From positions 1,391,202-1,455,201 of the forward strand of contig OZ244046.1 in the NCBI GenBank assembly GCA_965215055.1: 64,000 nt of DNA, written 5' to 3'. How positions within the stretch are numbered: the first letter of the stretch is position 1; every line of letters begins with the position of its first letter. This DNA is from Gammaproteobacteria bacterium (GTDB lineage Bacteria; Pseudomonadota; Gammaproteobacteria; UBA4575). The position numbers were made by a program, and so were the translations under genes. Below are positions 4,818-38,400 of this stretch, piece by piece. The notes under the pieces are model-generated. The model ran no database searches. It was not told where the DNA came from and worked only from the letters and a program-made list of their open reading frames with translations.

Positions 4818-7800
4818 CTAGATTTCATGCTGTGCCTCTCGTTCCTCGTCTTCGGTGTGGGCGTTCTCGATCTCGGTATTGAGTCGGCGAAGCATGGTTT
4901 TGGCCCAGCGTTGCACTTGCCCCCGTGGATGATCATTCAGCGTGCTTAGCGGCGCTTGGTAAAGCTCGTAATAGGCTCCTAATGCTCCCCACCAAACGAA
5001 GGTATGTATATTGCGAGAGATAGCTTGCAGCACATCCTGACGGTCGCCGAACTCGTCGAGTAGCCGCGTCATGACTTGATGCAGCAAGCGTTTGGTGGCA
5101 TCAACTCGATAAGTGTTGAGTACCGGCACGATCGCTGCTGTGAAAGCCGGTGCGCGCTCCGGGTTAGCATGGCACCAAGCGAACAAGGTATCCTGGGGAA
5201 GGCTCAAGATTGGGGGATTCTCCCCGCGCATGGAAGAACCCAGGCCGTTCAAGACAGATTCAAAGTGCAACGCTTGCCTTCGGTCAGAAACGATTGCTTG
5301 ACCAATGAGAGGCCAAGTTATTTCGGGAAAGTTAGACAGCAGTATGGGAATCATAGGCTCCAAAAGCCGCCCATGGTGCTGCTCAGCAATTTTGACCAGC
5401 GCACGCGCCAGCACCAAGGCTATGGTACAAGCGTCGCGGTCCTGCCGGCCATGCTTCAGCATCCACTCAGTGATTGTCTCGAAGTGGTAAGCTACCATTG
5501 TTTCACGCGGTGGCTGTTCCCACCGGGCTATATTTTCTGCAGACTTAAGGATTTGTGGTCGTAGGTCATCGAGCTTATCGAGTGCACCATGAACATACTT
5601 CCCCATTAGGCTCACAGCTACTGCAAACGCTTCCATATTGTGGTCGAGCATCGCATCAAACAAGGGCGCTACCACAGGGGCAGGAACCTTAGCAAGCACT
5701 CCACCAAATTTCCAGCACTCTAATTGTTCAGGATCCAGCAAGCCCTCCTGAAGAGCATCAATAATCAACTCGATATCTGATGGGGTGATGCCGATTCGCA
5801 AACAAATTAGGGGAAGTGCTGATGCAAGCTCGGGCGATTGTGCCGCCTTCCGTTTAAAATCATCCACGACATCTGGATGGTTCTCAACGATACCCTTTAC
5901 ATACCCTGAAAGCAGATCGAAGTTACGCTCTTCCGGCACTTCTACGACAGCGGAGGTGATTGGTTTCAGCCAGTCCAGCGGTGACTCAGCAGAGGTGGCG
6001 ATAGACTTTCCAAAGATATAAGCTTTACGCTGCTGACCTTGGCTGACTCGGAGCAGAATTCTCTTAAGGGTCGCTGGTGGTTGTTTGACGATCTCGACTG
6101 CTAGCACACGCACTGCCTCAGCTTGGCGCTGTTCGAGTGTATCGAAATCTAACTTTTCTTCACAAGGAAAGTCCCATGGCATCTCGGTGACGAGGAAACG
6201 CACGCGCGCTTCTATATCCTTCGGCTGCAGCTTGGCAATCAATGTCTTGACCCGACTGATCATTTCATGATCATCGTCGGTAGCATCGTGCTTGAGGAAA
6301 TGACCAAGACTTTCCAGTGCCTCTACCCACTGATCAACTTTATCGCCTACCTGGTCGACCACTGTTTCCACGGTATCAATGAGACCATGCTCAATCAGTG
6401 AGTGTAGATGACGGCCGAGACTGGCGCGAGCAGCGATACCGGAGTCGTCGTCCTGCTCAGCAAATTGAGCAAGGTACATCACACAATTCTTAATATAGTC
6501 AGTTGCCTTCTCGTTTGTGTCTGGACGCCAATCTTTTAGAGCTGGTCGGGACCCGTGAATCTCTGCGCCCACATAACGCGAGAAATAATCCGTCTTCACT
6601 CCAGCAATCAGAGCTTTGACGACAATAGAGCGTTGTACAGGATTGTTAGTTTTGGTTGCTTCATTCAGGATGGAGAGCCGCGAATTGCCATCGGCGGCAG
6701 TGTTACCAGCCAGCATAGGAAAGAGTGCTTTGAACTGATTGGCGGCGTTGTTGTGGATATGTTGTTTGTTCTCGGCAACTGCGAGGCGTAGCAGGAGTCG
6801 GGTGCCATCCTCAAAGGTGTCAGAACAAAAGGCAATTTTCTCCAGTGCCAAGACAAGGTGACAGTGCACGTCGCCTTTGATCTCCGACAGATTCTCAATT
6901 TCTATCAAGGAGCGCTTAATCTGGTCCACAACAACTCTAGAGTTGATTTCGGCAAAAGCTGACAGCACCTCGGCGTGGTCCGCCTTGTAAACTCCTTCGG
7001 AGCCATCGAACGGTCCATCCCGACGGCAGACATGAGCAACCACTTTCTGGGAAATGTCAGTCGTGTTAAGCAGGGCGAGCTGCCGAGCAGCCCGGATTTT
7101 GAGATTGGAACTAGTATCGCCGGCCAGTACCTCATCCCATTTATCTGGGGTCCACCTTTGCCACTGACTCTCGGCTAGTCTCATGGCGACCGGGCGAGGC
7201 TGAAGAATAGCTAATCTTCCTCTCCGTTGAACAACGCCTCGCTCGGTAAGTTGCTGGAAAGCGTCGTGTAGGTCTTCGACCGTAAGATTACAGCTCACGT
7301 GGGCAATCTCACCGAGTTCAGTTGAGTCCTCTATCTCGACTAAGCCAAATGTGGCCAGTAACGCCGCCGACTTGCGTAACAGGTCGGGCTTATGAGGCTT
7401 GCGTCCCAGGACGAATGCGTCGACAAGATCATGGTCCTCGACATGAGCAACGGGTATGCCCTCAGTCCATGCTTTCCTGATGCGGATGGCGATTCTCGGG
7501 AAGCCTTTGGAGAAATGCACAAGCCGTCGCTGGTCTTCGGACGGCAAGCCCAGTGGCACTTGATTGACGATGGCCTCAATAACAGAAAGTGGTGCCTCCT
7601 CAACCTTGAATGTCATCTTATCCAACGTTTCCAACGTTCCAGGAGGTATCTCGCTGTCGATAGTGACTAGTGAAAGATGGCTACACTCACGCGAAACTAT
7701 GCCAGTGAGAATCCTATGCGTTCCAGGAGTACAACAATCGACGACCACAATGGCGCGCTGCCCCATATCCACCAGATTTTGAACGATGTTATTGATAGAT

Positions 7801-8849
7801 TCCGAGTCGGCCTCGGACTCGTTGGCATAAAGCACGATGTTGCTAACGAAGAGGTCCTCTTCGTTAGCGGAACCAAGAGCTTCAAGTGTCAATCGGGATT
7901 TGCCGACGCCCGATAGTCCGACTATGCGGACAACACCTTTTGGTTTTGTTACCCGCTCACGCAGCCAGGTACGCAACACGGGAAGACGCTCGTCATCGAC
8001 CCGGAGCGAGCTGTCATGCTCGGCGCGACCAGCCCAGTGGGACCAGGAGCGGAAGGGACCAATGGTTCCGGGCTGTGTCTGCTCCTTCACCCAGGTAGCA
8101 ACAGCGGGGTGGCTATTTGTCCACGCAGCGATCTGGTCGGCGTCGCGAAACTGGACTTGGTCATCGTCGATGGTGATACCAGTGCCACGAAGTGCTTCCA
8201 GAATCCGCATTTCTCGTTTTTTGATATCCTTGTAGACGTAACGATGGGCACACAGCATAATGTAGCGACCGCCATCCTCAATAGTCGAGCCCACCATACC
8301 CTTGACCGATCCTGCTTTGGTCAGAACATCGCTGCCTGCCTTGGCCGGCGTAATTTTGCTCGCTTTTAATTGGAACTGATTGAGCCGTGAAGGAAGGAAT
8401 GGTGTATGGTCAGGGCCGTCGTCCCATCTGATGTGTCCGTCTTCGCCTTCATCAGGGGTAGTAATTTTGCTGGCCACATGGACGTTATAAGCTGGCAGCC
8501 CATTGGCTGCGGCTTCCGCATGTAGTATCCGCTCTAAAAATAGGGAGAATGTCCGCTCGGTTAGAAATGCGATGTGCTCCCCTGTCACTTCGAATGGGCG
8601 GTGTTTTACAATGGTGGTCATAGGACGAGACTTACTTCCTTGAAGGGTAGAGATCGCGGCTGGGTTAGCCTTCAGCAACCGCAGCAGGTTAACGACAGAA
8701 GCAGCAGGCTTCACAGTTCCAGACTCATATTTTGTGAAGGCGCGTGGCCCACCACCCAATAGTTCACCGGCCTCTACTTGGGAAAGGCCAAGCTCTTTTC
8801 GAATAGCGCGGATTTCATCAGGGTCGATCTCGTTTTTATTTTCTTTCAT
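4818..8849 (-). CDS. 1,343-aa multidomain protein: N-terminal MqsA-type (XRE) HTH, unknown middle region, P-loop NTPase, ~900-aa alpha-helical (HEAT/ARM-like) repeat tail. Candidate defence-type STAND-like NTPase
   Basis: aa 14-66 IRKELGLSQVEAGELLGGGPRAFTKYESGTVKPAASVVNLLRLL aligns with the MqsA C-terminal HTH (VRKKLSLTQKEASEIFGGGVNAFSRYEKGNAQPHPSTIKLLRVL). Walker A GLSGVGKS (aa 311-318, nt ~7896-7919). Walker B-like AIVVVDCC (aa 366-373). No stop in 4 kb. Confidence 0.65.
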   Translation of the reverse strand: MKENKNEIDPDEIRAIRKELGLSQVEAGELLGGGPRAFTKYESGTVKPAASVVNLLRLLKANPAAISTLQGSKSRPMTTIVKHRPFEVTGEHIAFLTERTFSLFLERILHAEAAANGLPAYNVHVASKITTPDEGEDGHIRWDDGPDHTPFLPSRLNQFQLKASKITPAKAGSDVLTKAGSVKGMVGSTIEDGGRYIMLCAHRYVYKDIKKREMRILEALRGTGITIDDDQVQFRDADQIAAWTNSHPAVATWVKEQTQPGTIGPFRSWSHWAGRAEHDSSLRVDDERLPVLRTWLRERVTKPKGVVRIVGLSGVGKSRLTLEALGSANEEDLFVSNIVLYANESEADSESINNIVQNLVDMGQRAIVVVDCCTPGTHRILTGIVSRECSHLSLVTIDSEIPPGTLETLDKMTFKVEEAPLSVIEAIVNQVPLGLPSEDQRRLVHFSKGFPRIAIRIRKAWTEGIPVAHVEDHDLVDAFVLGRKPHKPDLLRKSAALLATFGLVEIEDSTELGEIAHVSCNLTVEDLHDAFQQLTERGVVQRRGRLAILQPRPVAMRLAESQWQRWTPDKWDEVLAGDTSSNLKIRAARQLALLNTTDISQKVVAHVCRRDGPFDGSEGVYKADHAEVLSAFAEINSRVVVDQIKRSLIEIENLSEIKGDVHCHLVLALEKIAFCSDTFEDGTRLLLRLAVAENKQHIHNNAANQFKALFPMLAGNTAADGNSRLSILNEATKTNNPVQRSIVVKALIAGVKTDYFSRYVGAEIHGSRPALKDWRPDTNEKATDYIKNCVMYLAQFAEQDDDSGIAARASLGRHLHSLIEHGLIDTVETVVDQVGDKVDQWVEALESLGHFLKHDATDDDHEMISRVKTLIAKLQPKDIEARVRFLVTEMPWDFPCEEKLDFDTLEQRQAEAVRVLAVEIVKQPPATLKRILLRVSQGQQRKAYIFGKSIATSAESPLDWLKPITSAVVEVPEERNFDLLSGYVKGIVENHPDVVDDFKRKAAQSPELASALPLICLRIGITPSDIELIIDALQEGLLDPEQLECWKFGGVLAKVPAPVVAPLFDAMLDHNMEAFAVAVSLMGKYVHGALDKLDDLRPQILKSAENIARWEQPPRETMVAYHFETITEWMLKHGRQDRDACTIALVLARALVKIAEQHHGRLLEPMIPILLSNFPEITWPLIGQAIVSDRRQALHFESVLNGLGSSMRGENPPILSLPQDTLFAWCHANPERAPAFTAAIVPVLNTYRVDATKRLLHQVMTRLLDEFGDRQDVLQAISRNIHTFVWWGALGAYYELYQAPLSTLNDHPRGQVQRWAKTMLRRLNTEIENAHTEDEEREAQHEI

Positions 8850-8854
8850 AATGT

Positions 8855-8865
8855 ACCTTAAAGGT
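8855..8865. promoter_or_regulatory. MqsA-type operator-like palindrome ACCT-TAA-AGGT 6-16 nt upstream of the start codon of the giant HTH-NTPase gene
   Basis: Plus strand atgtACCTTAAAGGTcat directly adjacent to the ATG at 8849-8847 (minus). MqsA is known to bind ACCT-N(2-4)-AGGT palindromes. Confidence 0.5.
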
Positions 8866-9130
8866 CATATATTAAATAATAAGCACCATTATGGTATATA
8901 TTTTTTATGGTGTCAAGATTTGATTCTAATATGAGGTTGTTGAGTTCTCTTACACCACCTCTTCTCCTACGCAACCTCTTAATGTATTTCTCGGTGGTCC
9001 TCGCCAGAACTTTGATTGATCACTGATTTCGAGAAGTTGTTCTGAAGAAGGAGTGGGAGTCATGTTGTTTTACCTGAAATAGGGAATAGTAGGCGTAAAA
9101 TAACTTGCTTGTTACCAACCTTTTGTCTTC

Positions 9131-10935
9131 ATGGCCGAAACTGATTACATCACTCCGGAAATTGCGGGGACTCTACCTGGCCTGCTGAATGAGCGCATAT
9201 CACGGTCACCTGCTTCAGTGGCGTATGGCTATTATGATGATGAAAAACAAGCTTGGCAGTACTTGAACTGGCAGCAAGTTGCGCAACGGGTCGCCGCCAT
9301 TCAGGCCGCTTTGCGGCAGGAGCAGCTTGTAAAGGGTGACCGTGTTGCCATCATGTTGCGCAATTGCCCCGAGTGGATAGCATTTGATCTTGCAGCACTA
9401 AGTCTGGGTTTGGTTACGGTGCCCTTGTACACCCATGACTCGTTTGAGAACGTAGCTTACGTGGTTCAGGACGCAGGCGTGAGGCTTATGCTTGTTCAAA
9501 ACCGGCGTCAGTGGCGACAGTTAGCACAGACAGGCTTGGGCAGCGACTCATTGCAGCGAGTGGTTACTGTCGAGCCGATTGCTCACCAGGATACCTTGGT
9601 CGTATCCATGCAAATGTGGCTGGCAGGCCACGCGGATGCCAAGTTTCATAGAATCCCCATCGATACGGATGAACTGGCAACGATTATCTATACTTCTGGC
9701 ACAACCGGGCGTCCCAAGGGGGTCATGTTGAGCCACAGAAATATCCTGTCCAATGCGTATGCGGCTTTGCAATGTGCGGATTTCTTCGCGCACGACGTGT
9801 TTTTATCTTTTTTGCCGTTATCTCATGCCTTGGAACGCACCTCAGGTTGTTATCTGCCGATGATGGCGAATGCGAAGGTATATTTTGCGCGTTCGGTGCA
9901 GCAATTGGCGCAAGACATCCAGGAAGTTCGCCCGACCGTGCTTGTATCGGTACCACGCATCTACGAAATGATATATGCAAAGGTCCTCGACTCGTTACGG
10001 CAACAATCTTTATTCGGGCAAAAGATATTTGCATGGACGCAGTACGTCGGCTGGCGTCGGTTTCGGTTCATGTCAGGTAGAGCCGGTTGGCACTGGAGTC
10101 TATTGAGCTGGCCTTTGTTGAACCGCCTGGTTGCCAGAAAGATCAATCAGAAGCTTGGTGGAAGATTGCGCTACGCCATTGCCGGCGGCGCTGCGCTGAG
10201 CAAGACAATTGCAAAGTTTTTTGTCAGCCTGGGTGTACCGCTTTACCAGGGTTATGGGATGACGGAAAGCAGCCCTGTAATCAGTGTCGGCCGACCGCAA
10301 GATAATGATCCGTTCAGTGTTGGCAAGGTGCTGCCAAGCTTGGAAATCAGGGTTACTGAAGATGGCGAGCTGTGCACGCGCAGCGATTGCGTAATGCTGG
10401 GCTATTACAAGAATGAAGATGCTACACGAGAAGTTGTAGACGATGAGGGCTGGTTGCATACGGGAGACATGGCTGCCGTAAGCGATGATGGGTATTTGTA
10501 TATCACGGGCAGAATCAAGGACATCATAGTCCTGGCAAATGCTGAAAAGGTACCACCGCAAGATATGGAGACTGCAATTTGTGCGGATGCTTTGTTTGAT
10601 CAGGTTATGGTGTTGGGTGAGGGTAGGCCTTTTCTGGTAGCCCTGCTGGTATTGCATGAGGCAGAGTGGCGGAAACGGAAGGTACTCTTGGCTTCGATGC
10701 TACGGGAACGGAAAGTTTGCAGTCATCGCGGGCGCGAAAATATATATTGAAGCGTTTGTCAGGTTGCCTAAGGGAGTTTCCCGGTTATGCTCAAATACGA
10801 AGGGTCAGTCTCTATCTTGATCCGTGGACGATTGAGAATGGTTTGCTGACACCGACTCTGAAAATAAAAAGGGCACAACTTCAGCGGCGGTTTGAAAAAG
10901 ATATAGAGGCTATGTACGAATCTCTGGCGCACTGA
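9131..10935 (+). pseudogene. long-chain-fatty-acid--CoA ligase (FadD-like, AMP-binding) with an apparent frameshift near 10670-10690. Genuine pseudogene or sequencing error
   Basis: ORF 9131-10750 carries the AMP-binding signature TSGTTGRPKGVMLSHRN. The conserved C-terminal end (FPGYAQIRRVSL..PWTIENGLLTPTLKIKRAQL) continues in ORF 10666-10935 in another frame. Confidence 0.6.
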
Positions 10936-25412: not shown

Positions 25413-26117
25413 TTAACCCGCTGCTGCATTCGTCACTGCGCTTTTCTCAGGGTTTCCAATTCTGTCAAAGAAGTAGGCGCTGAGTATTCCCAGCACAACC
25501 CAGAAGATTGCATTAGTGGCAAGAGACGCGTAATGAAAGTAAGTTCTCAACTCTTCAGATGCCAAACCCCCGTGAACTTCGGGTTGTGGTGCGCCAAACA
25601 GGTGCGGCAGTATTATTAACGCTGTACCAATTATACCAAACAACTTGAGATCCGGTTGAAAAGCGATAATCCATAGCCCTGCTGCCGTAGCAATGACAGT
25701 TATCAACCACCACACTTGCCGTATTTCCAATCCCGCAGCAGCGTCACCGGGAAGCTCTGGCGGCAGACCAAAAGAGGGTGCAAGGTGAAATGCAGCAAAG
25801 CCTGCAAGTCCCCACAATATACCTCTGCGCCAGGTAACGGCTCCTCGAAGGGCATAACATGCCGTCAACAACAGACCGAATCCGATGCTGATGATCACGC
25901 TATTCATTGCGGTGAAAAAAGTTCGCTCGGCACCATCTGCAGGCGCCCATGGTTCTTCATTTTGATGCGTGTCACCTTCGTCGCTATCTGTAACTTCGAA
26001 GGCCTCCGCTTCAATGATCGAGGGGACAATTATAAAGTGTTGCATGCCCGCAAGCAGCAGGCCGGCAATTCCTCCTGCCAGAAGTGCGGCAAGAAATACC
26101 CTGTTAAAAGCTTTCAA
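25413..26117 (-). CDS. cbtA: cobalt transporter subunit CbtA
   Basis: Multi-TM protein with acidic/His loop, CbtA-like. Follows cbtB. Confidence 0.7.
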   Translation of the reverse strand: MKAFNRVFLAALLAGGIAGLLLAGMQHFIIVPSIIEAEAFEVTDSDEGDTHQNEEPWAPADGAERTFFTAMNSVIISIGFGLLLTACYALRGAVTWRRGILWGLAGFAAFHLAPSFGLPPELPGDAAAGLEIRQVWWLITVIATAAGLWIIAFQPDLKLFGIIGTALIILPHLFGAPQPEVHGGLASEELRTYFHYASLATNAIFWVVLGILSAYFFDRIGNPEKSAVTNAAAG

Positions 26118-26139
26118 TTATATTTGAACCCGAGAGGGC

Positions 26140-26334
26140 CTAGTGACAGGGAAAAGCGAGCCCGTGTCGAATATCATGTGCTGCGTTGTGAAGAGCTTCT
26201 GGCCCGAAACCCACAGCGGCAATAATAAGCGCGCTTGTAAGAACTGCTGCCATGACGGCATATACTGTACCCCACGGCATAACTCCAGCTTGAATTTGAG
26301 CTAATAGACCTGTTGCTTCTTTAACTGTGCTCAT
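26140..26334 (-). CDS. cbtB: cobalt transporter subunit CbtB
   Basis: 64 aa, one TM, C-terminal His-rich HNAAHDIRHGLAFPCH typical of CbtB. Confidence 0.7.
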   Translation of the reverse strand: MSTVKEATGLLAQIQAGVMPWGTVYAVMAAVLTSALIIAAVGFGPEALHNAAHDIRHGLAFPCH

Positions 26335-26403
26335 TATCTACTTCTCCTTTGCAAATTTCGATTAATGGTATCGGAGTGAAGAGTGTTGGCAATACATTTG
26401 TCA

Positions 26404-26661
26404 GGCGACGACATGCGTTATGAACTCCTCATTTACTATACTTATGATTAGATACCGTCAAACAAACCGTTTCACAAGCCCAAGCTTACTGCATTTGAGA
26501 GTTTTTATCACTATTTGTTATGATGCATGCACTTGGTCTAATGAACAGCCTATCAAAAAGATAAGTTTGCAATCAAAGACTTTGTTATTATCAATCCCAT
26601 AGGAGTTGGCTATGGATCAACGAGGTATTCCCCCTGCAATACTTGATCGCTATTGCGGAAT
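26404..26661. repeat. copy A of a ~260-bp repeat: inverted duplicate of the lysR-scnB divergent promoter region
   Basis: Reverse complement matches 29434-29695 at >95% (e.g. atgaactcctc..tatgattagataccgtcaaacaaaccgtttcacaagccc...aatcccataggagttggctatggatcaacgagg). Confidence 0.85.
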
Positions 26662-26704
26662 TTGGTCTCGTATCTCGTTATGCCGCAGTTTTGCCGATAT
26701 AGGG

Positions 26705-27175
26705 TTAGAGCCCTAATTCCGTCAATCCGGGATGATCATCTGGACGCGGGCCTTGTTCCCACAGAAATTTCCGCTCAGACTCAAGAATAGGAACGTCGTT
26801 GATGCTGGCCTCACGCCGACGCATGAGTCCACGCTCATCAAATTCCCAGTTTTCATTGCCATGGGCACGGAACCAGTTACCCGAATCATCGCGCCACTCG
26901 TATTGAAAACGCACCGCGATGCGATCGTCATGGAACGTCCAGAGTTCTTTAATCAAGCGGTAGTCGAGTTCACGTACCCACTTGCGTTTAAGAAACGCGA
27001 CGATCTCCTCTCGCCCATGAAGAAATTCTGCACGATTACGCCAAAGACTGTCTTCAGTATAAGCAAGTGAAATTTTTTCCGGGTCACGTGAATTCCATGC
27101 ATTCTCTGCCATTCTGATTTTCTGTATGGCATCCTCTCGGGTAAACGGAGGCAGTGGCGGTCGTTCAGCAGACAT
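26705..27175 (-). CDS. DUF1348 family protein
   Basis: [52 protein letters not shown] matches the DUF1348 signature. Confidence 0.65.
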
Positions 27176-27270
27176 TGTTGTCCCCCCTTATTTGATGATT
27201 ACTACCAAGTGCAGTATACCGGACGGCATATTTCCGTAAAAGTTCAAATGTCTTCCCTTGTATCTGGACG

Positions 27271-27603
27271 TTGCTTGGTATTATTGACGAAGAAAGTGTG
27301 CCATATCCAAAAACACGGAGGCAGCAAGATGTGAAGCGGCAATTGAAGGACAAATTTGTTGATGCGATAACAAGCGGTAACAGGCCGATACGCATCTTCT
27401 TTTTCGGAGGGGTATTCATCGCGTATTTTATGATGACGATACTGGCTGATATTCTTGGCGTGAATATGGCGATAGGCAGGGATATCGATCTACCGAGTGC
27501 TGTAGTGATGATGGTTTCTTTGCTTATTGGTTTTGGTATCTCGTTCAGTGTTATACACTTTGCCGACGCTATCAAACGACAACGCGAGGAGGACGAACGC
27601 TAA
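27271..27603 (+). CDS. small membrane protein (2 TM), hypothetical
   Basis: Hydrophobic segments IRIFFFGGVFIAYFMMTILADILGV and VVMMVSLLIGFGISFSVI. Confidence 0.4.
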   Translation: MLGIIDEESVPYPKTRRQQDVKRQLKDKFVDAITSGNRPIRIFFFGGVFIAYFMMTILADILGVNMAIGRDIDLPSAVVMMVSLLIGFGISFSVIHFADAIKRQREEDER

Positions 27604-27615
27604 GGAATGAAGCTT

Positions 27616-27939
27616 TTACGCACCGGTATGCCAAACCAGGGCATAGTCTGATTTATCCACCTTGTTTCGATTGTCGGTGATGATGATCTCAGCTCCATGT
27701 AATTTAGTGGCTTGATTGATATTGCTGCTGAAAATCAATTTTCGAAACTGTTCATAGTCAATGTGGCTGAAAACGTCTTCCTGGCGTTGAAGGAAGGAAT
27801 GCAGGTCCGGCAAGGTAAAACGCCAACACCTCTGCTCAACGCTGAAACACCGCTCCTGTTGCAGCTTCTGCAGTTGGGCCTTGTTTCTCTGGGCTACTCG
27901 TTCAAAAAAAGAAATCAGTGCTTGTTCAATGGCCTGCAT
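27616..27939 (-). CDS. hypothetical protein downstream of cynS
   Basis: ORF from track, co-directional with cynS/lysR. Confidence 0.35.
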   Translation of the reverse strand: MQAIEQALISFFERVAQRNKAQLQKLQQERCFSVEQRCWRFTLPDLHSFLQRQEDVFSHIDYEQFRKLIFSSNINQATKLHGAEIIITDNRNKVDKSDYALVWHTGA

Positions 27940-28011
27940 TGAAAAAATCGTCTCGACGCGCGAGATAAAGTACCATCCAGAAAAGTGCTGCTAGCCAGGG
28001 CCGGCGGGCGA

Positions 28012-28452
28012 TCACCATGTAGCATAACGCAGGAATTTGCCGTTCAGGGTGATAACGACACGATCACCCTTTGGGTCCTCCTGTTTATCAATATCCATTG
28101 AAAAGTCAATGGCGCTCATAATTCCGTCACCAAACTTTTCATGGATGATTTCCTTGATAGTATCGCCATATACGCCGACAATTTCATATAGCCGATAGAC
28201 CACCGGGTCCTGCGGAACCGTCTTTTCCCATGATTTATGAGGATACTCTTGCAGTGCCGCACAGACTTCATCGTCGAGCTCAAGAATTTCACAAAGTCTT
28301 TTGGCCGCATCCGCAGGCATGCTATTCATTCCAAGGCATGCTGATGTGACCCATGTTGCACCCATATTCAACTTGTCTGCGATACCTTCCCAGGTTAATT
28401 TTCCAGCCTTCTTTTTCGCGATGATGAGATCAGTCATTTCCTGTTTAGTCAT
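28012..28452 (-). CDS. cynS: cyanate hydratase (cyanase)
   Basis: C-terminal [51 protein letters not shown] aligns with E. coli CynS ([51 protein letters not shown]). Confidence 0.9.
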   Translation of the reverse strand: [146 protein letters not shown]

Positions 28453-28489
28453 TATTGTGCCTCCTGTTGATATAGCGGTCTGTTTTGTT

Positions 28490-29497
28490 TCAAATTATTT
28501 TTTCCAAACTTGTAGTCCCAAGTTTTTGATCTTCTAACAGGGAACAAGGTTTCCGCCTGCGAATGAGTGCTTGCTGTAGCTTGTGAGTGGACCAATTTGA
28601 TGCCAGCCTTGAAAAGGCCAGACAAGCCGGACTCCTGTAACCATCTTTGCGGTAGACCAAAGTAATTGCTTTACAAGGCATTTCCGGGGTCAGTTCAATC
28701 GAGTGAAGTTGGCACTTCATTTGGATAATACTGCTTGGTAGCACGGTGGCAAGCGTGCCGAGCCGGACCATTTCTATGATTACACTAAGCGAGTTGGTTT
28801 CAACCGTAATATGCGGCATGATGCCTTGGTCAAGACAATACTGGTCTATATGGCGCCGCAATGCAAAATCAGTATTGAGTAGTGCTAACGACTCCTGTTC
28901 AAACTCCTGTACACCCATTTGCTTGTTCTGATATTTGGCATGAGGGTGGGCATTGCCGACTGCAATGTGGAGCATTTCTTCAAAAAGTATGTCCGTCTGG
29001 ACTTCTAGTGATCGCGTCTTGGCCGAAAACGGTTTGCTAAAAACAATACCGATGTCAACATGATCTTCGGCTACGGCTATTTCAATATCGTCTTGAGGCA
29101 TTTCCAATGTACTCAAACTGATGTTGGGATAGCTCGTATTAAAGTCTTCCAGCAATGGACAAGCCAAACAGTCAGTGATGGGAGTCCATCCCAGGCGAAG
29201 TGAGCCGCGACTCAGGTTTTGCACGTCGTGAATAGCGCGTGTCCCTGCCTCCAAGTCTCTACGGGCACAACGAGCATAGTGCAAATAAGCCTCGCCGGCA
29301 TCGGTCAATCGTACCGTACGTCCGGTTCGGTCCAGTAACGGTGTCTGCAACAGTTCTTCTAAATGTTTGATCTGCTGAGATAAGGTTGGCTGAGAAACGT
29401 GCAATGCTTTAGCGGCCCGGGTGTAGCTGCCGTATTCCGCAATAGCAATCAAGTATTGCAGGGCGCGGGGGAAAATACCTCGTTGATCCATAGTCAA
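28490..29497 (-). CDS. LysR-family transcriptional regulator (CynR-like position, divergent from scnBAC)
   Basis: N-terminal HTH LQYLIAIAEYGSYTRAAKALHVSQPTLSQQIKHLE. LysR substrate-binding domain. Confidence 0.9.
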   Translation of the reverse strand: MTMDQRGIFPRALQYLIAIAEYGSYTRAAKALHVSQPTLSQQIKHLEELLQTPLLDRTGRTVRLTDAGEAYLHYARCARRDLEAGTRAIHDVQNLSRGSLRLGWTPITDCLACPLLEDFNTSYPNISLSTLEMPQDDIEIAVAEDHVDIGIVFSKPFSAKTRSLEVQTDILFEEMLHIAVGNAHPHAKYQNKQMGVQEFEQESLALLNTDFALRRHIDQYCLDQGIMPHITVETNSLSVIIEMVRLGTLATVLPSSIIQMKCQLHSIELTPEMPCKAITLVYRKDGYRSPACLAFSRLASNWSTHKLQQALIRRRKPCSLLEDQKLGTTSLEKII

Positions 29498-29695
29498 CTC
29501 CTATGGGATTGATAATAACAAAGTCTTTGATTGCAAACTTATCTTTTTGATAGGCTGTTCATTAGACCAAGTGCATGCATCATAACAAATAGTGATAAAA
29601 ACTCTCAAATGCAGTAACTTGGGCTTGTGAAACGGTTTGTTTGACGGTATCTAATCATAAGTATAGTAAGAGGAGTTCATAACTATGTCGTCGCC
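29434..29695. repeat. copy B of the ~260-bp repeat: native lysR 5' end plus lysR-scnB intergenic promoter region plus first 11 nt of scnB
   Basis: See copy A. Contains candidate LysR-box dyad cTTATCtttttGATAGg at ~29538-29554. Confidence 0.85.
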
Positions 29696-30116
29696 TACCA
29701 GACAGAAAGTAATGAAGCATCTTGATATTGTCGGCCATTTACAGCCGGCTTTGCATCAACCCCAGCATGCACCATTTCCAGATGAGGTTGATAATGCCCA
29801 TTTCAGAGCCTATATGCGGACATCTCATGATGTTGGCGGTGAACCGGATGTGTCCATCCCTTGGCAGGAAAAAGAAGAAGAGCAGTGGGAACTGAATACC
29901 TACGTGACTTGCGAATGCCTGGCTTGGCGCGGTGTCTGGAACGCCGAGGAGAGGCGCCGTCGGCAGAATGTTGACTTGGGGCAGACTCAGTATCTGGGCT
30001 TACCCTATTACGGACGATGGCTGCTTTCCGCTGCGAGGATTATGGTCGATAAGCAGCACGTCACACTCACTGAGTTAATGAATAAGATTGATGAGGTCAA
30101 GAAACGCTATGAGTAG
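29685..30116 (+). CDS. scnB: thiocyanate hydrolase beta subunit (nitrile hydratase beta N-terminal-like)
   Basis: Gene order and sizes (143/118/232 aa) match scnB-scnA-scnC of Thiobacillus thioparus SCNase. NHase-beta-like sequence. Confidence 0.65.
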   Translation: MSSPTRQKVMKHLDIVGHLQPALHQPQHAPFPDEVDNAHFRAYMRTSHDVGGEPDVSIPWQEKEEEQWELNTYVTCECLAWRGVWNAEERRRRQNVDLGQTQYLGLPYYGRWLLSAARIMVDKQHVTLTELMNKIDEVKKRYE

Positions 30117-30462
30117 AAGTCACCACGCTGACAAAGCTACGGGGAAAGGCGACCCCCAGTGTTTTTTGGGTGAAGCGGGCCCACCCAAGTTCAAGGTGGG
30201 CGATCGTGTGCGGGTAAGAGATTTGCCAGATATTTTTTATACCCGCTGTCAGGTTTATACTCGCGGTGCGGTGGGAACAGTGGCAGTTGTAACTCATGAA
30301 AGCCCTGCCCCAGAGGACGAGGCTTGGGATAATGTTGACGCTCCCGAGTGGTTTTACATTGTGCGATTTCGGCAGAAAGACCTTTGGTCTGATTATCCCG
30401 ATGCTTACCCGAACGATACGCTACAGACTGAATTTTCCGAGCGTTGGCTAGAGTCGGCATAA
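30088..30462 (+). CDS. scnA: thiocyanate hydrolase alpha subunit (nitrile hydratase beta C-terminal SH3-like barrel). Probable start ~30109 (MSRSHH)
   Basis: KFKVGDRVRVRDLP...YTRCQVYTRGAVGTV NHase-beta C-terminal-type motif. Confidence 0.65.
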   Translation: MMRSRNAMSRSHHADKATGKGDPQCFLGEAGPPKFKVGDRVRVRDLPDIFYTRCQVYTRGAVGTVAVVTHESPAPEDEAWDNVDAPEWFYIVRFRQKDLWSDYPDAYPNDTLQTEFSERWLESA

Positions 30463-31208
30463 ATCTTGACCTAACTTTTAAGGATACAGTACAGAGCAGA
30501 GAGGAAAAACAAATGGCAGAGAAGCATAAAGCTGCACCCATGGTTGATGAGGTCAGCGATTTTGAGGTACTTGAAGTTGCCGTTCGTGAGCTTGCTATTG
30601 AAAAGGGTCTTTTCACCGCTGAGGATCATCGGCGATTTGCGGAGTTTGCGCACAGCATAGGCCCCTTACCGGCAGCACGTCTTGTCGCCAAGGCATGGTT
30701 AGACCCCGAGTTCAAGAAACTTGCCTTGGAGGATGGCTTTACGGCCAGCAAGGAAGTCGGTATTGACTGGCTGAATCCAACCGGGTTTGGCACACCAAGC
30801 GATTACTGCGACTTACGCGTTCTGGAAGACACGCCTGAAGTGAAGCACGTTGTCGTGTGTACGCTGTGCTCGTGTTACCCCAGGCCAATTCTTGGTCATT
30901 CACCGGAATGGTATCGAACGCCGAATTATCGCCGCCGCTTGGTTCGCTGGCCGCGGCAGGTACTTGCGGAATTTGGTCTTCAGCTTCCCGAGGACATAGA
31001 AATAAGAGTAGAAGACTCAAACCAGAAGTGCCGTTTCATGGTACTGCCGATGCGTCCAGAAGGCACTGATGGTTGGGACGAAGATCAGCTTGCTTCGATT
31101 GTAACCAGGGATTGTATGATTGGCATAGCGTTACCACACCCTGACAGAAAAGCGGACGATAAAAGGCCAGTGCATCCAGCGGTTAACCCGGTGGCGCACG
31201 ACCATTAA
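30444..31208 (+). CDS. scnC: thiocyanate hydrolase gamma subunit (nitrile hydratase alpha-type, Co/Fe-binding). Probable start ~30513 (MAEKHK)
   Basis: Metal-centre signature VCTLCSCYPRPILG (CxLCSC) of nitrile hydratase alpha / SCNase gamma. Confidence 0.8.
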   Translation: MARVGINLDLTFKDTVQSREEKQMAEKHKAAPMVDEVSDFEVLEVAVRELAIEKGLFTAEDHRRFAEFAHSIGPLPAARLVAKAWLDPEFKKLALEDGFTASKEVGIDWLNPTGFGTPSDYCDLRVLEDTPEVKHVVVCTLCSCYPRPILGHSPEWYRTPNYRRRLVRWPRQVLAEFGLQLPEDIEIRVEDSNQKCRFMVLPMRPEGTDGWDEDQLASIVTRDCMIGIALPHPDRKADDKRPVHPAVNPVAHDH

Positions 31209-36684: not shown

Positions 36685-38217
36685 CTATTTGAACCGATAC
36701 TGAAGCATCGCCCAGAACTTCTGGGTGTCATTGCTGAACTCATCGGCGTCGTAACTGGTGTATTTTACTAACCCAAGCCATTTCTTTGTAAACGGCTTGG
36801 CAAACAACATGCTCCACTCATCCCCGTAGTCTTTCATTCTGACTCCATTTACGCTCTTCTTGTCAGCTTCATATTTGTGATACTGGAAGACCAGCTTGGA
36901 CGGGCCGATCAATCCTTTCACTACATATGTAACACTGGTGTCCTTGAGGCCTCGGGCGGGAGTATTGGACCCACCAGGGCCGCCTACGAACTTGTCAGCC
37001 CAACCATTGAAGGCGTGTACCGTAGAAAGGGGGGTTTGCACAGCATTCACGCCGTTGCCTTCCAGAACTTCGTGACCTACCTTCAAAACCATCGGTTTGC
37101 CAAGTGCCGTGAAGGCACCGCCAAGCTCGATATTGTAGTAGTCGTTGTCATCCAGAGTGTCAAGGGCGTCATCCTCGGGGTCCTGGTTTGCCCATTCCAG
37201 CTCGGAAAGCAGGGTTAAATTATCGTTTAACTTGTGTTTGCCCAAAAATCGCACGCCCCAGGTATCGGAATCAAAAGGAAATTGAAGGCTACCTACGGCC
37301 ATTCCCATTGGTTGCCCTGTTACAGGGTTTATATTGGGGGGAGTAAATACAGGTACTGTTCCACCTTCACCTTCTTTAGGCGGGGTTCGCGAATTGTCTT
37401 TAAAGTCCAGTATGTAACGGTAGGCGGTCAGCTTTCCAAAGGGAAGTTTGTAAGAGATGTTAATGAGGTGGGAGTCATCCATATCATATTCATTGAATAC
37501 TGAATCCTTACCGAACAGTCGATTTACCTTATCAATATAGGAGTAAGAGATACTGAGGTTCTTGATTGATGAGTTGTCGATTCTGAAGGCATCAAAGGAC
37601 TGGTTATTATTGCGCCAGATAACGTCGCCTACCCAGCGATGATTATCATAGATGATGAGCTGTCTTCCCAACTTGAATGAAGTGTTGCCACTGCAGGGAC
37701 CTGGTGCCATCGGGCAACCGCCGGTTGGACTGCGCCAGCCGATGTAGAATTCTTCAACTTCTTCAAAATTGTTATCTGGAATAATGGCATGTCCCTCTGC
37801 GACGCGACTTGCACCCAGAAGATTCGGTGGAGCAAGCTTTAAGTCTTCGTCAAGGTTCAATGCATTATCACTGCCTAATCGCGTTGCTGCTTCTACCGAA
37901 CCACGGAAGTAAAAGCCATGATAGCGAGCTGTGGTATAGCCCAGTACGGCACGCAGGCTTAGCAGATCGGCGTCATCGGCGGCATTCAAGGGAGACGTTG
38001 GGGGGAGATCTTCGTCATTCACATCTTCATAGCGCATACGCAGCCAAACGTCGGGCTTGCCGCTCATCATTGCGTGTTGAATTTCAGTTGTATTTGGTAA
38101 AAACTTGCCGCGGTGGACGTTGGGAACATCGGGTAAGCCTGCTGCCCAGGCACTTTGTGCGATCATAAAAATGATAGCAGTGGTTATGAGACACGAAAGC
38201 GACTTGAAATTGATCAT
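36685..38217 (-). CDS. outer-membrane beta-barrel protein / putative porin (signal peptide)
   Basis: Signal peptide MINFKSLSCLITTAIIFMIAQSAWA. Alternating amphipathic beta-strand pattern. Aromatic C-terminus. Confidence 0.5.
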   Translation of the reverse strand: MINFKSLSCLITTAIIFMIAQSAWAAGLPDVPNVHRGKFLPNTTEIQHAMMSGKPDVWLRMRYEDVNDEDLPPTSPLNAADDADLLSLRAVLGYTTARYHGFYFRGSVEAATRLGSDNALNLDEDLKLAPPNLLGASRVAEGHAIIPDNNFEEVEEFYIGWRSPTGGCPMAPGPCSGNTSFKLGRQLIIYDNHRWVGDVIWRNNNQSFDAFRIDNSSIKNLSISYSYIDKVNRLFGKDSVFNEYDMDDSHLINISYKLPFGKLTAYRYILDFKDNSRTPPKEGEGGTVPVFTPPNINPVTGQPMGMAVGSLQFPFDSDTWGVRFLGKHKLNDNLTLLSELEWANQDPEDDALDTLDDNDYYNIELGGAFTALGKPMVLKVGHEVLEGNGVNAVQTPLSTVHAFNGWADKFVGGPGGSNTPARGLKDTSVTYVVKGLIGPSKLVFQYHKYEADKKSVNGVRMKDYGDEWSMLFAKPFTKKWLGLVKYTSYDADEFSNDTQKFWAMLQYRFK

Positions 38218-38354
38218 GGCCTTTTCCCCCCAAATTAAATAAGAAACCCGTGGCTTTTGTTGTTATTGGTGTTCTAAAACCACATCTTCGAACTTGTTAT
38301 GACCACCCTATTGTAATAGAAACATAATATAAAAGGATAGTACGTTATTCGTCC

Positions 38355-38400
38355 AAGACTTTGTTGTTATTGAATCCATAGGAGTTGACTATGAATCAAG
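38355..38400. repeat. copy C: partial (~46 bp, ~80% identical) copy of the lysR-start/promoter repeat, upstream of the OMP gene
   Basis: aagactttgttgttattgaatCCATAGGAGTTGACTATGaatcaag versus copy B aagactttgttattatcaatCCCATAGGAGTTGACTATGgatcaac. Confidence 0.6.

Follow-up and report, generated by a model that had tools for sequence, protein, structure and literature searches.

Introduction

In Rhodococcus rhodochrous J1 the cobalt importer gene nhlF is co-transcribed with nhlBA, and the genes cbtAB are said, after Rodionov and co-workers, to be usually controlled by a B12 riboswitch. NhlF is cited as a member of the NiCoT transporters, and CbtAB appears there among the predicted candidates for cobalt transport (PMC2667541). 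The thiocyanate hydrolase (scn) genes of Thiobacillus thioparus DSM 505 and Thioalkalivibrio thiocyanodenitrificans are described as lying in contexts with 'different cobalt uptake systems' (PMC5328954). In Escherichia coli, the sites of the regulator CynR take the form ATAA-n7-TTAT at positions -66, -44 and -34 (PMC5002191). Here we analyse a 64,000-nucleotide (nt) stretch of a gammaproteobacterial genome (contig OZ244046.1, hereafter the window) that holds a thiocyanate hydrolase operon, a divergent gene for a CynR-type LysR regulator and, further along, the pair cbtBA. The control region between the regulator gene and scnB occurs twice in the window, in inverted orientation, and the second copy (copy A) lies upstream of cbtBA.

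We judge it probable, from the sequence comparisons below, that copy A is a working second CynR-type control region that co-regulates cbtBA with the thiocyanate hydrolase operon. An earlier reading of this DNA without database searches (the sequence-only reading) had described the arrangement as promoter capture that co-regulates cobalt import. The co-regulation reading is well supported by comparison, because the operator is conserved, because the association between operator and cobalt transporter is recurrent, and because no B12 riboswitch was detected in the window; the event itself may be a replacement and not a first capture.

Results

The regulator-scnB control region is duplicated in inverted orientation

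Copies A and B were defined by a repeat search in the window together with BLASTN and MAFFT. The elements on which the argument depends are the following.

29434-29696, unstranded: copy B, the native control region, comprising 58 nt of the cynR/lysR coding sequence start, the 193-nt intergenic region and 12 nt of the scnB start
26403-26661, unstranded: copy A, the inverted duplicate of copy B, with its scnB side toward cbtB and its lysR side toward the 3' end of the DUF1348 gene
26612-26716, plus strand: frameshifted lysR stub open reading frame (ORF) of copy A, 34 codons and a stop, overlapping the 3' end of the DUF1348 gene by 12 nt
28490-29491, minus strand: cynR-type LysR regulator gene, 333 amino acids (aa) from the ATG at 29491; CynR equivalog NF008416 at 347.1 bits against a cutoff of 277 bits
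29685-30116, plus strand: scnB, by domain match
26140-26334, minus strand: cbtB, predicted cobalt transporter small subunit; Pfam CbtB at 46.6 bits against a cutoff of 27 bits
25413-26117, minus strand: cbtA, predicted cobalt transporter large subunit; Pfam CbtA at 156 bits, NCBIfam TIGR02458 at 220.6 bits against a cutoff of 182.9 bits

The repeat search resolves three pairs of inverted arms, namely 26486-26634 with 29469-29617 (149 nt, 98% identity), 26433-26484 with 29618-29669 (52 nt, 100%) and 26632-26661 with 29434-29463 (30 nt, 97%). BLASTN merges these arms into a single alignment of 26403-26661 with 29434-29696 (267 columns, 94.0% identity, 4 mismatches and 4-5 gaps). Repeat search, BLASTN and independent assemblies thus confirm the inverted duplication of about 260 bp that the sequence-only reading had reported. 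Its figure of more than 95% identity holds for the ungapped arms (97-100%) and drops to 94% once gaps are counted, and the part of scnB within the repeat is its first 12 nt (ATGTCGTCGCCT), not 11. The alignment and coordinates bear out that the scnB side of copy A points into cbtB-cbtA. The stub, given as 35 codons, is indeed frameshifted, with a corrected length of 34 codons and a stop. In the MAFFT alignment it differs from copy B by an 8-nt deletion, about three adjacent substitutions and one A-to-G change, and the operator spacer differs between the copies by one T/C position. In a second contig of the species, L001, the stub has a 9-nt deletion where copy A of the window has the 8-nt one.

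Which of the two copies is the original? On sequence grounds copy B is the native lysR-scnB region and copy A the derived one, because copy B runs unbroken into a full-length lysR and into scnB, whose N-terminus (MSSPT) agrees with that of other lineages. A staggered-break inversion was rejected as the origin of the inverted duplication, since the conserved N-termini of lysR and scnB join directly onto copy B, so that the enclosed segment cannot ancestrally have stood the other way round.

Both copies carry a composite operator

A two-part sequence element is shared by the two copies and by one further site in the window.

29490-29531, plus strand: operator of copy B, composed of the inverted repeat IR1 ATAGTCAACTCCTAT (29490-29504) and the second box AAAGTCTTTGAT 30 nt downstream
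26572-26613, minus strand: operator of copy A, directed toward cbtB, its sole difference a T-to-C change in the spacer
38351-38392, minus strand: third operator site, outside the 260-bp repeat, between dsrC and orf510 and pointing into orf510
36685-38217, minus strand: orf510, a signal-peptide protein of 510 aa with weak porin-like (Alginate_exp) similarity

The pattern ATAG-N7-CTAT-N18-GTCTTKGAY has exactly three matches in the window, all perfect, and these lie upstream of scnB, cbtB and orf510, each in activating orientation. Shuffled sequence gives an expectation of 0.00 matches when one mismatch is allowed and 0.29 when three are allowed; even with three, the window yields no additional match. 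In copy B, IR1 is a T-N11-A box, flanked by the CAT that forms the start codon of lysR, and the second (activation) box, GTCTTTGAT, occupies 29523-29531, the boxes standing 30 nt apart centre to centre. The T-to-C change in the spacer of copy A agrees with the consensus of other lineages. When the regulator-scnB intergenic regions of distant relatives are aligned, the element takes the form CATAG-N7-CTATGG, about 13 nt, then A(A/T)AGTCTTGGAC, abutting the regulator start codon, and the composite site also precedes scnB in loci whose ScnC is just 75-92% identical. Based on this conservation and on analogy with CynR, we propose that the operator is the recognition and activation site of a transcriptional regulator of the LysR type (LTTR), namely the CynR-type regulator of the locus.

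The layout around the regulator is the divergent one of LTTRs, such that its gene (28490-29491, minus strand) and scnB (from 29685, plus strand) diverge from a 193-nt intergenic region. Over 293 aa, the regulator and E. coli CynR share 43% identity; the ORF as listed begins at an upstream TTG, 29497. CynR-type regulators are expected to face cynTSX, whereas the divergent target here is scnBAC, with cynS located 3' of the regulator gene and read in the same direction. The regulator would work like a CynR, but may be a functionally distinct, thiocyanate-pathway subtype. With respect to the third site, orf510 is probably a third operator target, and its ortholog in the related genome L009 (542 aa) has its own operator upstream. 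Its product may form a channel in the outer membrane through which thiocyanate or cyanate passes under regulation.

Promoter positions were assigned from the operator geometry and from a consensus scan.

29551-29556, plus strand: putative weak -10 element TAGGCT of the scnB promoter, placed by operator geometry, with a predicted start at ~29563
26547-26552, minus strand: mirror -10 element in copy A, placed likewise, with a predicted start at ~26540
29579-29608, minus strand: best sigma70-like promoter in the repeat, TTGAGA-18-TG-TATGAT, 10/12 matches, directed toward lysR
26495-26524, plus strand: duplicate of the lysR promoter in copy A, pointing into the stub and then antisense into the DUF1348 gene

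The starts of scnB at ~29563 and of cbtB at ~26540 would follow from analogy with the -66 and -34 positions of E. coli CynR, and AT-rich, -10-like hexamers occur at the same offset in the modules of other lineages. The sequence TTGACG-15-TATAGT beside the Shine-Dalgarno was rejected as a promoter, as its spacing is too short and it would yield a near-leaderless transcript without a Shine-Dalgarno. On the stub strand (plus), no terminator-like site lies between the copied lysR promoter of copy A and position 27627, and an antisense effect of this promoter on the DUF1348-orf107-cynS-cynR string is possible.

The leader between copy A and cbtB

Two features lie between the repeat and the transporter genes.

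26334-26414, minus strand: upstream open reading frame (uORF) of 26 codons and a stop, opened by the copied scnB Shine-Dalgarno and ATG (26414), its TAA overlapping the cbtB ATG as TAATG
26365-26392, minus strand: weak promoter-like site in the unique 68-nt spacer, TTGCCA-16-TACCAT, 9/12 matches, a consensus match only

From the copied scnB ATG it is 80 nt downstream to the cbtB start, and cbtB also possesses an AGGAG of its own. The uORF is identical in the same-species contigs L001, L002 and L008, and the overlap of its stop with the cbtB start makes translational coupling possible. A search for a cobalamin riboswitch or other Rfam family returned nothing at gathering score in the whole window and nothing at E<=1 in 26100-29800, and the Rfam riboswitch search in the related loci likewise returned none. 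A structured leader was considered and rejected, the minimum free energy z-scores of both leaders being ordinary (0.47 and 0.30).

Independent assemblies of the same species

Further contigs were recovered through exact ScnB, CbtA and CbtB proteins from several samples and assemblers, and the exact CbtB look-up yielded same-species contigs only. Both copies, with the same copy-specific indels and in the same orientation, are present in L001 (a 97-kb ENA contig), in L002/L089 (GCA_964347745.1) and in L003 and L008, which belong to one SPAdes assembly (sample ERZ21849000); a fourth sample, L004 and L091, contains copy B whole and copy A in part. Several short-read or Logan contigs break within or close to the repeat. 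Across 20 kb the strains share 99.3-99.5% identity with the window, in contrast to 94% between copies A and B, and the duplication is therefore older than the split of these strains.

Copy B of L003 and copy A of L008 have three single-nucleotide polymorphisms (SNPs) in common that are missing from the other strains (alignment columns 149-154; window ~29558-29563/26540-26545), reflecting either gene conversion or a collapsed repeat in a short-read de Bruijn graph. Two metagenome scans aimed at copy A of more divergent strains, one with the CbtA protein and one with a 28-nt repeat core, returned nothing. Two Logan contigs of a more divergent strain from different samples, L005 and L007, end at the same base (~29512), after the first operator box, and this coincidence hints at a repeat boundary near that position in their lineage.

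The sister species keep a diverged operator half-site before cbtB

Outside the species, the closest members of the genome collection are L009 and L010, two uncultured gammaproteobacterial metagenome-assembled genomes (MAGs) with ScnC 90% identical. Their gene order is cbtA, cbtB, two other genes, orf107, cynS, lysR and then the divergent scnB. Between cbtB and orf107 they carry a metallophosphoesterase gene and an unknown gene, as opposed to the DUF1348 gene of the window, and the inverted repeat is absent from both. The region upstream of their cbtB aligns in register with the scnB module, and ATAGTTATAATTTATGG and the -10 region TCCTTTAGACT are retained. In L009, an IR1-plus-GG pattern has three distinct sites against 0.02 expected, and in both MAGs a diverged half-site lies upstream of cbtB. 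Outside the operator and -10 region, no homology was detectable between the L009 cbtB upstream region and either the lysR stub or the scnB leader. Given the diverged half-site, the 'capture' seen in the window may represent the replacement or refreshment of an older operator. Both MAGs also encode a second, solitary cbtB paralog (L009 14126-14320, plus strand, 64 aa; L010 14707-14904, plus strand), which follows the ABC permease gene as the last gene of the scn operon and has no cbtA behind it.

Cobalt importers and duplicated operators in other scn loci

A predicted cobalt importer lies within 10 kb of the scn genes in all 14 of the proteobacterial loci with adequate flanks, and its family and position vary among them.

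L092, L094 and L095 (ScnC 88-92% identical): NicO, a Ni/Co permease, encoded within the scn operon behind the ABC permease gene
L013, L014 and L037: CbtA(B), inside the scn operon
L011, L012, L015, L016 and L019: CbiM family, 226-230 aa with N-terminus MHIEPG, in a separate cbiM-cynS unit
L009 and L010: cbtBA, downstream of the regulator-cynS string

In the five genomes with a cbiM-cynS unit an extra operator copy lies directly upstream of cbiM, in the same orientation, and in L094 and L095 an extra operator lies upstream of cynS. An operator before a cobalt importer is therefore seen in several lineages, such that the association is recurrent and does not depend on the duplication in the window. 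The comparison with related thiocyanate hydrolase loci that the sequence-only reading had called for thus reveals sister species without the repeat, yet a recurrent link between operator and cobalt importer. The solitary CbiM-family genes are located at 4744-5424 in L011, 2426-3106 in L012, 1038-1718 in L015, 4124-4804 in L016 and 6272-6964 in L019; no cbiN, cbiQ or cbiO was detected near them, and cynS is the next gene.

Several of these genomes contain duplications of the control region itself.

L012, 1895-2347 versus 8496-9184: direct orientation, 77-78% identity, with a frameshifted regulator stub of ~75 codons upstream of cbiM
L016, 3750-3901 versus 8797-8948 (152 nt): direct orientation, 83% identity, including ~50 nt from the coding part of the regulator gene
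L015, 88 nt: control module, 90% identity
L011, 68 nt: control module, 82% identity
L094 and L095, ~45 nt: bare operator only, 89% identity

The stub-plus-control-region duplications upstream of cbiM in L012 and L016, which are older than that of the window and decayed, indicate that this route to a second operator is recurrent. Over 95 nt, the modules within one genome are 88% (L012), 89.5% (L016) and 85% (L015) identical, against a between-genome mean of 63%; the scnB modules of L011 and L012 are 75% identical to each other. These duplications look like a decay series of the event seen in the window or, read otherwise, like concerted evolution of the modules.

Some further observations concern the same loci. 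The L012 stub adjoins a tRNA gene. The regulator-scnB intergenic region is widened to 440-520 nt in L011 (8700-9150; a Candidatus Thiodiazotropha MAG) and L012 (8720-9240), where two to three operator-like modules stand in tandem, and that of L012 also has short direct repeats, GCCCGATTTTGGACAATGAGTGTTGCGGGT, in two copies. L013 contains a second scnB/scnA-like pair (7096-7852, minus strand; 56-58% identical), which is transcribed away from the main scn operon and has a separate operator copy in front of it (8464-8505, minus strand).

Other genes of the locus

The remaining genes around the repeat are these.

26705-27175, minus strand: DUF1348 gene, by domain match, the last gene in the repeat-bracketed segment
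27616-27939, minus strand: orf107, an ORF with no family assigned, companion of cynS and the regulator in L009 and L010
28012-28452, minus strand: cynS (cyanase), 3' of cynR on the same strand
30088-30462, plus strand: scnA, by domain match
30513-31208, plus strand: scnC; TIGR03887 (thiocyanate hydrolase gamma equivalog) at 395.7 bits against a cutoff of 291.45 bits
31221-31607, plus strand: P15K-like activator gene, 128 aa, with weak NHase_beta_N similarity

Profile matches confirm the identities given to CbtA, CbtB, the DUF1348 protein, CynS, the LTTR, ScnB, ScnA, ScnC and the P15K-like protein in the sequence-only reading. The operon qualifies as thiocyanate hydrolase by its three subunits, the gamma motif VCTLCSCY and the downstream activator gene; the motif is invariant in ScnC and we take it to be a marker of the cobalt type. 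A NitT/TauT-type ABC transporter lies 3' of the P15K-like gene, followed by tusA and sqr. CbtAB was assigned on the basis of adjacent cbtB and cbtA genes that both exceed their Pfam cutoffs, and on the NCBIfam model CbtB scores 48.2 bits, under its cutoff of 64.4 bits. An adjacent RND efflux system was rejected as a cobalt (Czc) exporter, as NCBIfam groups it with generic multidrug RND permeases, below all cutoffs.

The DUF1348 gene occurs near cynS/cynR in L016 and L019 as well. The product of orf107 is probably a functional component of the pathway, because the gene travels with cynS and the regulator and has homologs in other scn loci (L013 and L014). Nearly all other proteins across the 20 kb are 99-100% identical between the strains compared. 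In L001 and L002, CbtA residues ~154-167 read QSVLYLKLFGVAL in place of the window's QPDLKLFGIIGTAL, which looks like a compensated frameshift in a transmembrane stretch.

Discussion

How would a duplicated control region bring cobalt import under the control of thiocyanate degradation? In the model that we infer from these arrangements, the regulator (28490-29491) would recognise one and the same two-part operator at three places, in copy A, in copy B and at the third site, and once induced, presumably by cyanate or a thiocyanate-derived signal, it would activate the weak promoter predicted immediately 3' of the second box. From copy B, transcription would extend through scnBAC, the P15K-like gene, the ABC transporter genes, tusA and sqr. 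From copy A, the predicted start would give a leader of ~205 nt with the 26-codon uORF, followed by cbtB-cbtA, whose presumed substrate is cobalt. Cobalt import would then rise alongside the cobalt-requiring apo-enzyme and its activator, and the third, older operator copy would add the porin-like gene to the regulon.

Several results weigh against this model. Within the repeat, the consensus scan found no sigma70-like promoter that reads toward scnB or cbtB, and the -10 element TAGGCT is a weak one that is positioned by geometry, by analogy with CynR. The promoter-like site in the spacer means that cbtBA may not depend on copy A. The copies are also separated by a 1-nt insertion in the leader of copy A and, around the scnB Shine-Dalgarno, by two 1-nt insertions and a T-to-GC change (MAFFT). 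Differences amount to ~4 events in the 61-nt stub against 5 in the 187-nt core, too few for significance; since the core is not significantly depleted, they give no direct indication that copy A is under selection. Moreover, cobalt import by CbtAB is a prediction, the family being only 'proposed' in NCBIfam. Lastly, the E. coli cynR-cynT region has geometry and a CCTAT half-site in common with the operator, not sequence, and with only these matches the same recognition sequence as that of E. coli CynR is not claimed.

Could copy A then be a neutral scar of a rearrangement in the cbtB-orf107 interval, with cbtBA transcribed from its own spacer promoter and the duplicated operator at most titrating the regulator or making an antisense transcript? 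That interval is wholly different from its counterpart in L009/L010, the unique spacer has the promoter-like TTGCCA-16-TACCAT, indels have gathered between the copies, including near the copied Shine-Dalgarno and leader, and the mismatch density of the core is not significantly below that of the stub. We nevertheless regard a scar as unlikely: the operator of copy A is intact with its single change toward the cross-lineage consensus, independent lineages have the same operator before other cobalt transporters, L009/L010 retain a half-site upstream of cbtB, and the duplication is older than the 99.3-99.5% identical strains and kept in all of them. A different history with the same function, in which the duplication is no recent capture but ancient, predates the split from L009/L010 and has been held near-identical by gene conversion, appears distinctly improbable. 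The L009 cbtB upstream region has no homology to the lysR stub or scnB leader beyond the operator and -10 region, and the copy-specific indels are fixed in all strains, contrary to frequent conversion. The three SNPs common to L003 copy B and L008 copy A would suit such a history, but they come from a short-read de Bruijn assembly, in which a collapsed repeat mimics the signal. An ancient duplication draws further support from the diverged module upstream of cbtB in L009/L010, in register with the scnB module, and from within-genome modules that are more alike than orthologous ones in several lineages (L012, L016 and L015).

The remaining two explanations concern the repeat as a structure. As 258-bp inverted repeats of 94-100% identity, the copies are long enough for RecA-dependent inversion, and the sequence-only reading had noted that the enclosed 2.8-kb segment (DUF1348-orf107-cynS-cynR) could flip. 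Such an inversion is possible in principle, yet every assembly that spans a junction (the window, L001, L002/L089, L003 with L008, and L004 with L091) has one orientation, a comparison of assemblies in which minor isomers could be missed, and the four enclosed genes include no recombinase of the kind that usually accompanies such switches. Furthermore, no switch-like output would be expected because near-identical promoters lie on both sides, so that inversion only swaps the neighbouring target of the regulator; we consider a recombination switch very improbable. Metagenome assembly carries a general risk of chimeric or duplicated joins, and some contigs break in or near the repeat. The chance that the repeat is such an artefact is negligible, because both copies, with identical indels and unique flanks, recur in no fewer than three additional assemblies of the species that were made independently, with other samples and assemblers, and the assembly duplication that the sequence-only reading had guarded against is thus not what is found.

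Co-regulation of cbtBA through copy A therefore remains the reading that we prefer. A broader generalization may be drawn from the loci compared, and we offer it tentatively, as a possibility with the balance somewhat against it. Here the window would show the early stage of a general, as yet undescribed habit by which scn loci repeatedly copy a whole CynR-type module (stub, operator, promoter and leader), possibly homogenised by gene conversion, and so recruit units, namely cyanase, a porin and cobalt importers from three families that are unrelated. Within a genome, the paralogous control regions would evolve in concert, and the regulon would be built by local segmental duplication, not by point-mutational gain of sites. 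The inverted layout seen here would also allow occasional flipping of the regulator-cyanase segment.

The locus provides a concrete example of tying the import of a scarce metal to the synthesis of the enzyme that needs it, by a route in which the whole control region is copied upstream of the transporter genes, as opposed to moving the transporter into the operon. A search of the accessible literature for a LysR regulator or operator of scn (thiocyanate hydrolase) loci found none. Relative to that literature, the new elements are a conserved operator for the LysR/CynR-type regulator of scn loci, a small predicted regulon made up of the scn operon, the cobalt importer, cyanase and the porin-like protein, and a series of such duplications, decayed to varying degrees, in other lineages. 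These should be useful for annotating thiocyanate degraders, both in bioremediation and among host-associated sulfur oxidisers, and they lend indirect functional support to the view that CbtAB and the solitary CbiM-like proteins provide a non-corrin enzyme with its cobalt.

Comparison with known systems

The proposed mechanism is not new in kind, as it combines an LTTR regulon with a duplicated control region and the known linkage of cobalt importers to the nitrile hydratase family. The closest regulatory parallel is E. coli cynR-cynTSX, which has the same divergent regulator, a 4-N7-4 inverted repeat (T-N11-A) by the regulator start, a second site ~30 nt further on (IR1 and IR3 of CynR) and cyanase in the locus. 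It differs in its half-sites, ATAA/TTAT as opposed to ATAG/CTAT here, and nothing in E. coli clearly corresponds to the second box, GTCTTGGAC. In the window, moreover, the divergent target is the scn operon, cynS comes after the regulator, and the operator is present in three copies.

For the coupling of metal and enzyme, the parallel is nhlF (NiCoT) of R. rhodochrous J1, where a cobalt importer is likewise coupled to a nitrile-hydratase-family enzyme with a non-corrin cobalt centre. Its direct analogue is the NicO gene inside the scn operon of L092, L094 and L095; the window, by contrast, has CbtAB, outside the operon, as a separate unit under a duplicated control region. The scn loci of T. 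thioparus and T. thiocyanodenitrificans share with the window scnABC, a hypothetical (P15K-like) gene, the NitT/TauT ABC transporter, DsrE/TusA and SQR, with cyanase and a cobalt-uptake gene nearby (PMC5328954). That study describes no regulator, operator or promoter duplication, and the window adds these together with the CbtAB variant. Riboswitch-controlled cbtAB genes encode the same predicted transporter family; the cbtBA genes of the window differ in having no Rfam family upstream, and their control would be transcriptional, through a LysR-type operator. As in other regulons that grow by promoter duplication, an operator, promoter and leader have been copied to another unit, and here the lysR stub and scnB start betray their origin. 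This case is unusual in being so clean and recent and in being accompanied by a decay series (L012, L016, L015, L011 and L094/L095), always in a cobalt-transporter or cyanase context. Judged from its sequence, the window is a clear and recent instance in which duplication of a control region has let an LTTR regulon retain or probably gain a predicted cobalt importer.

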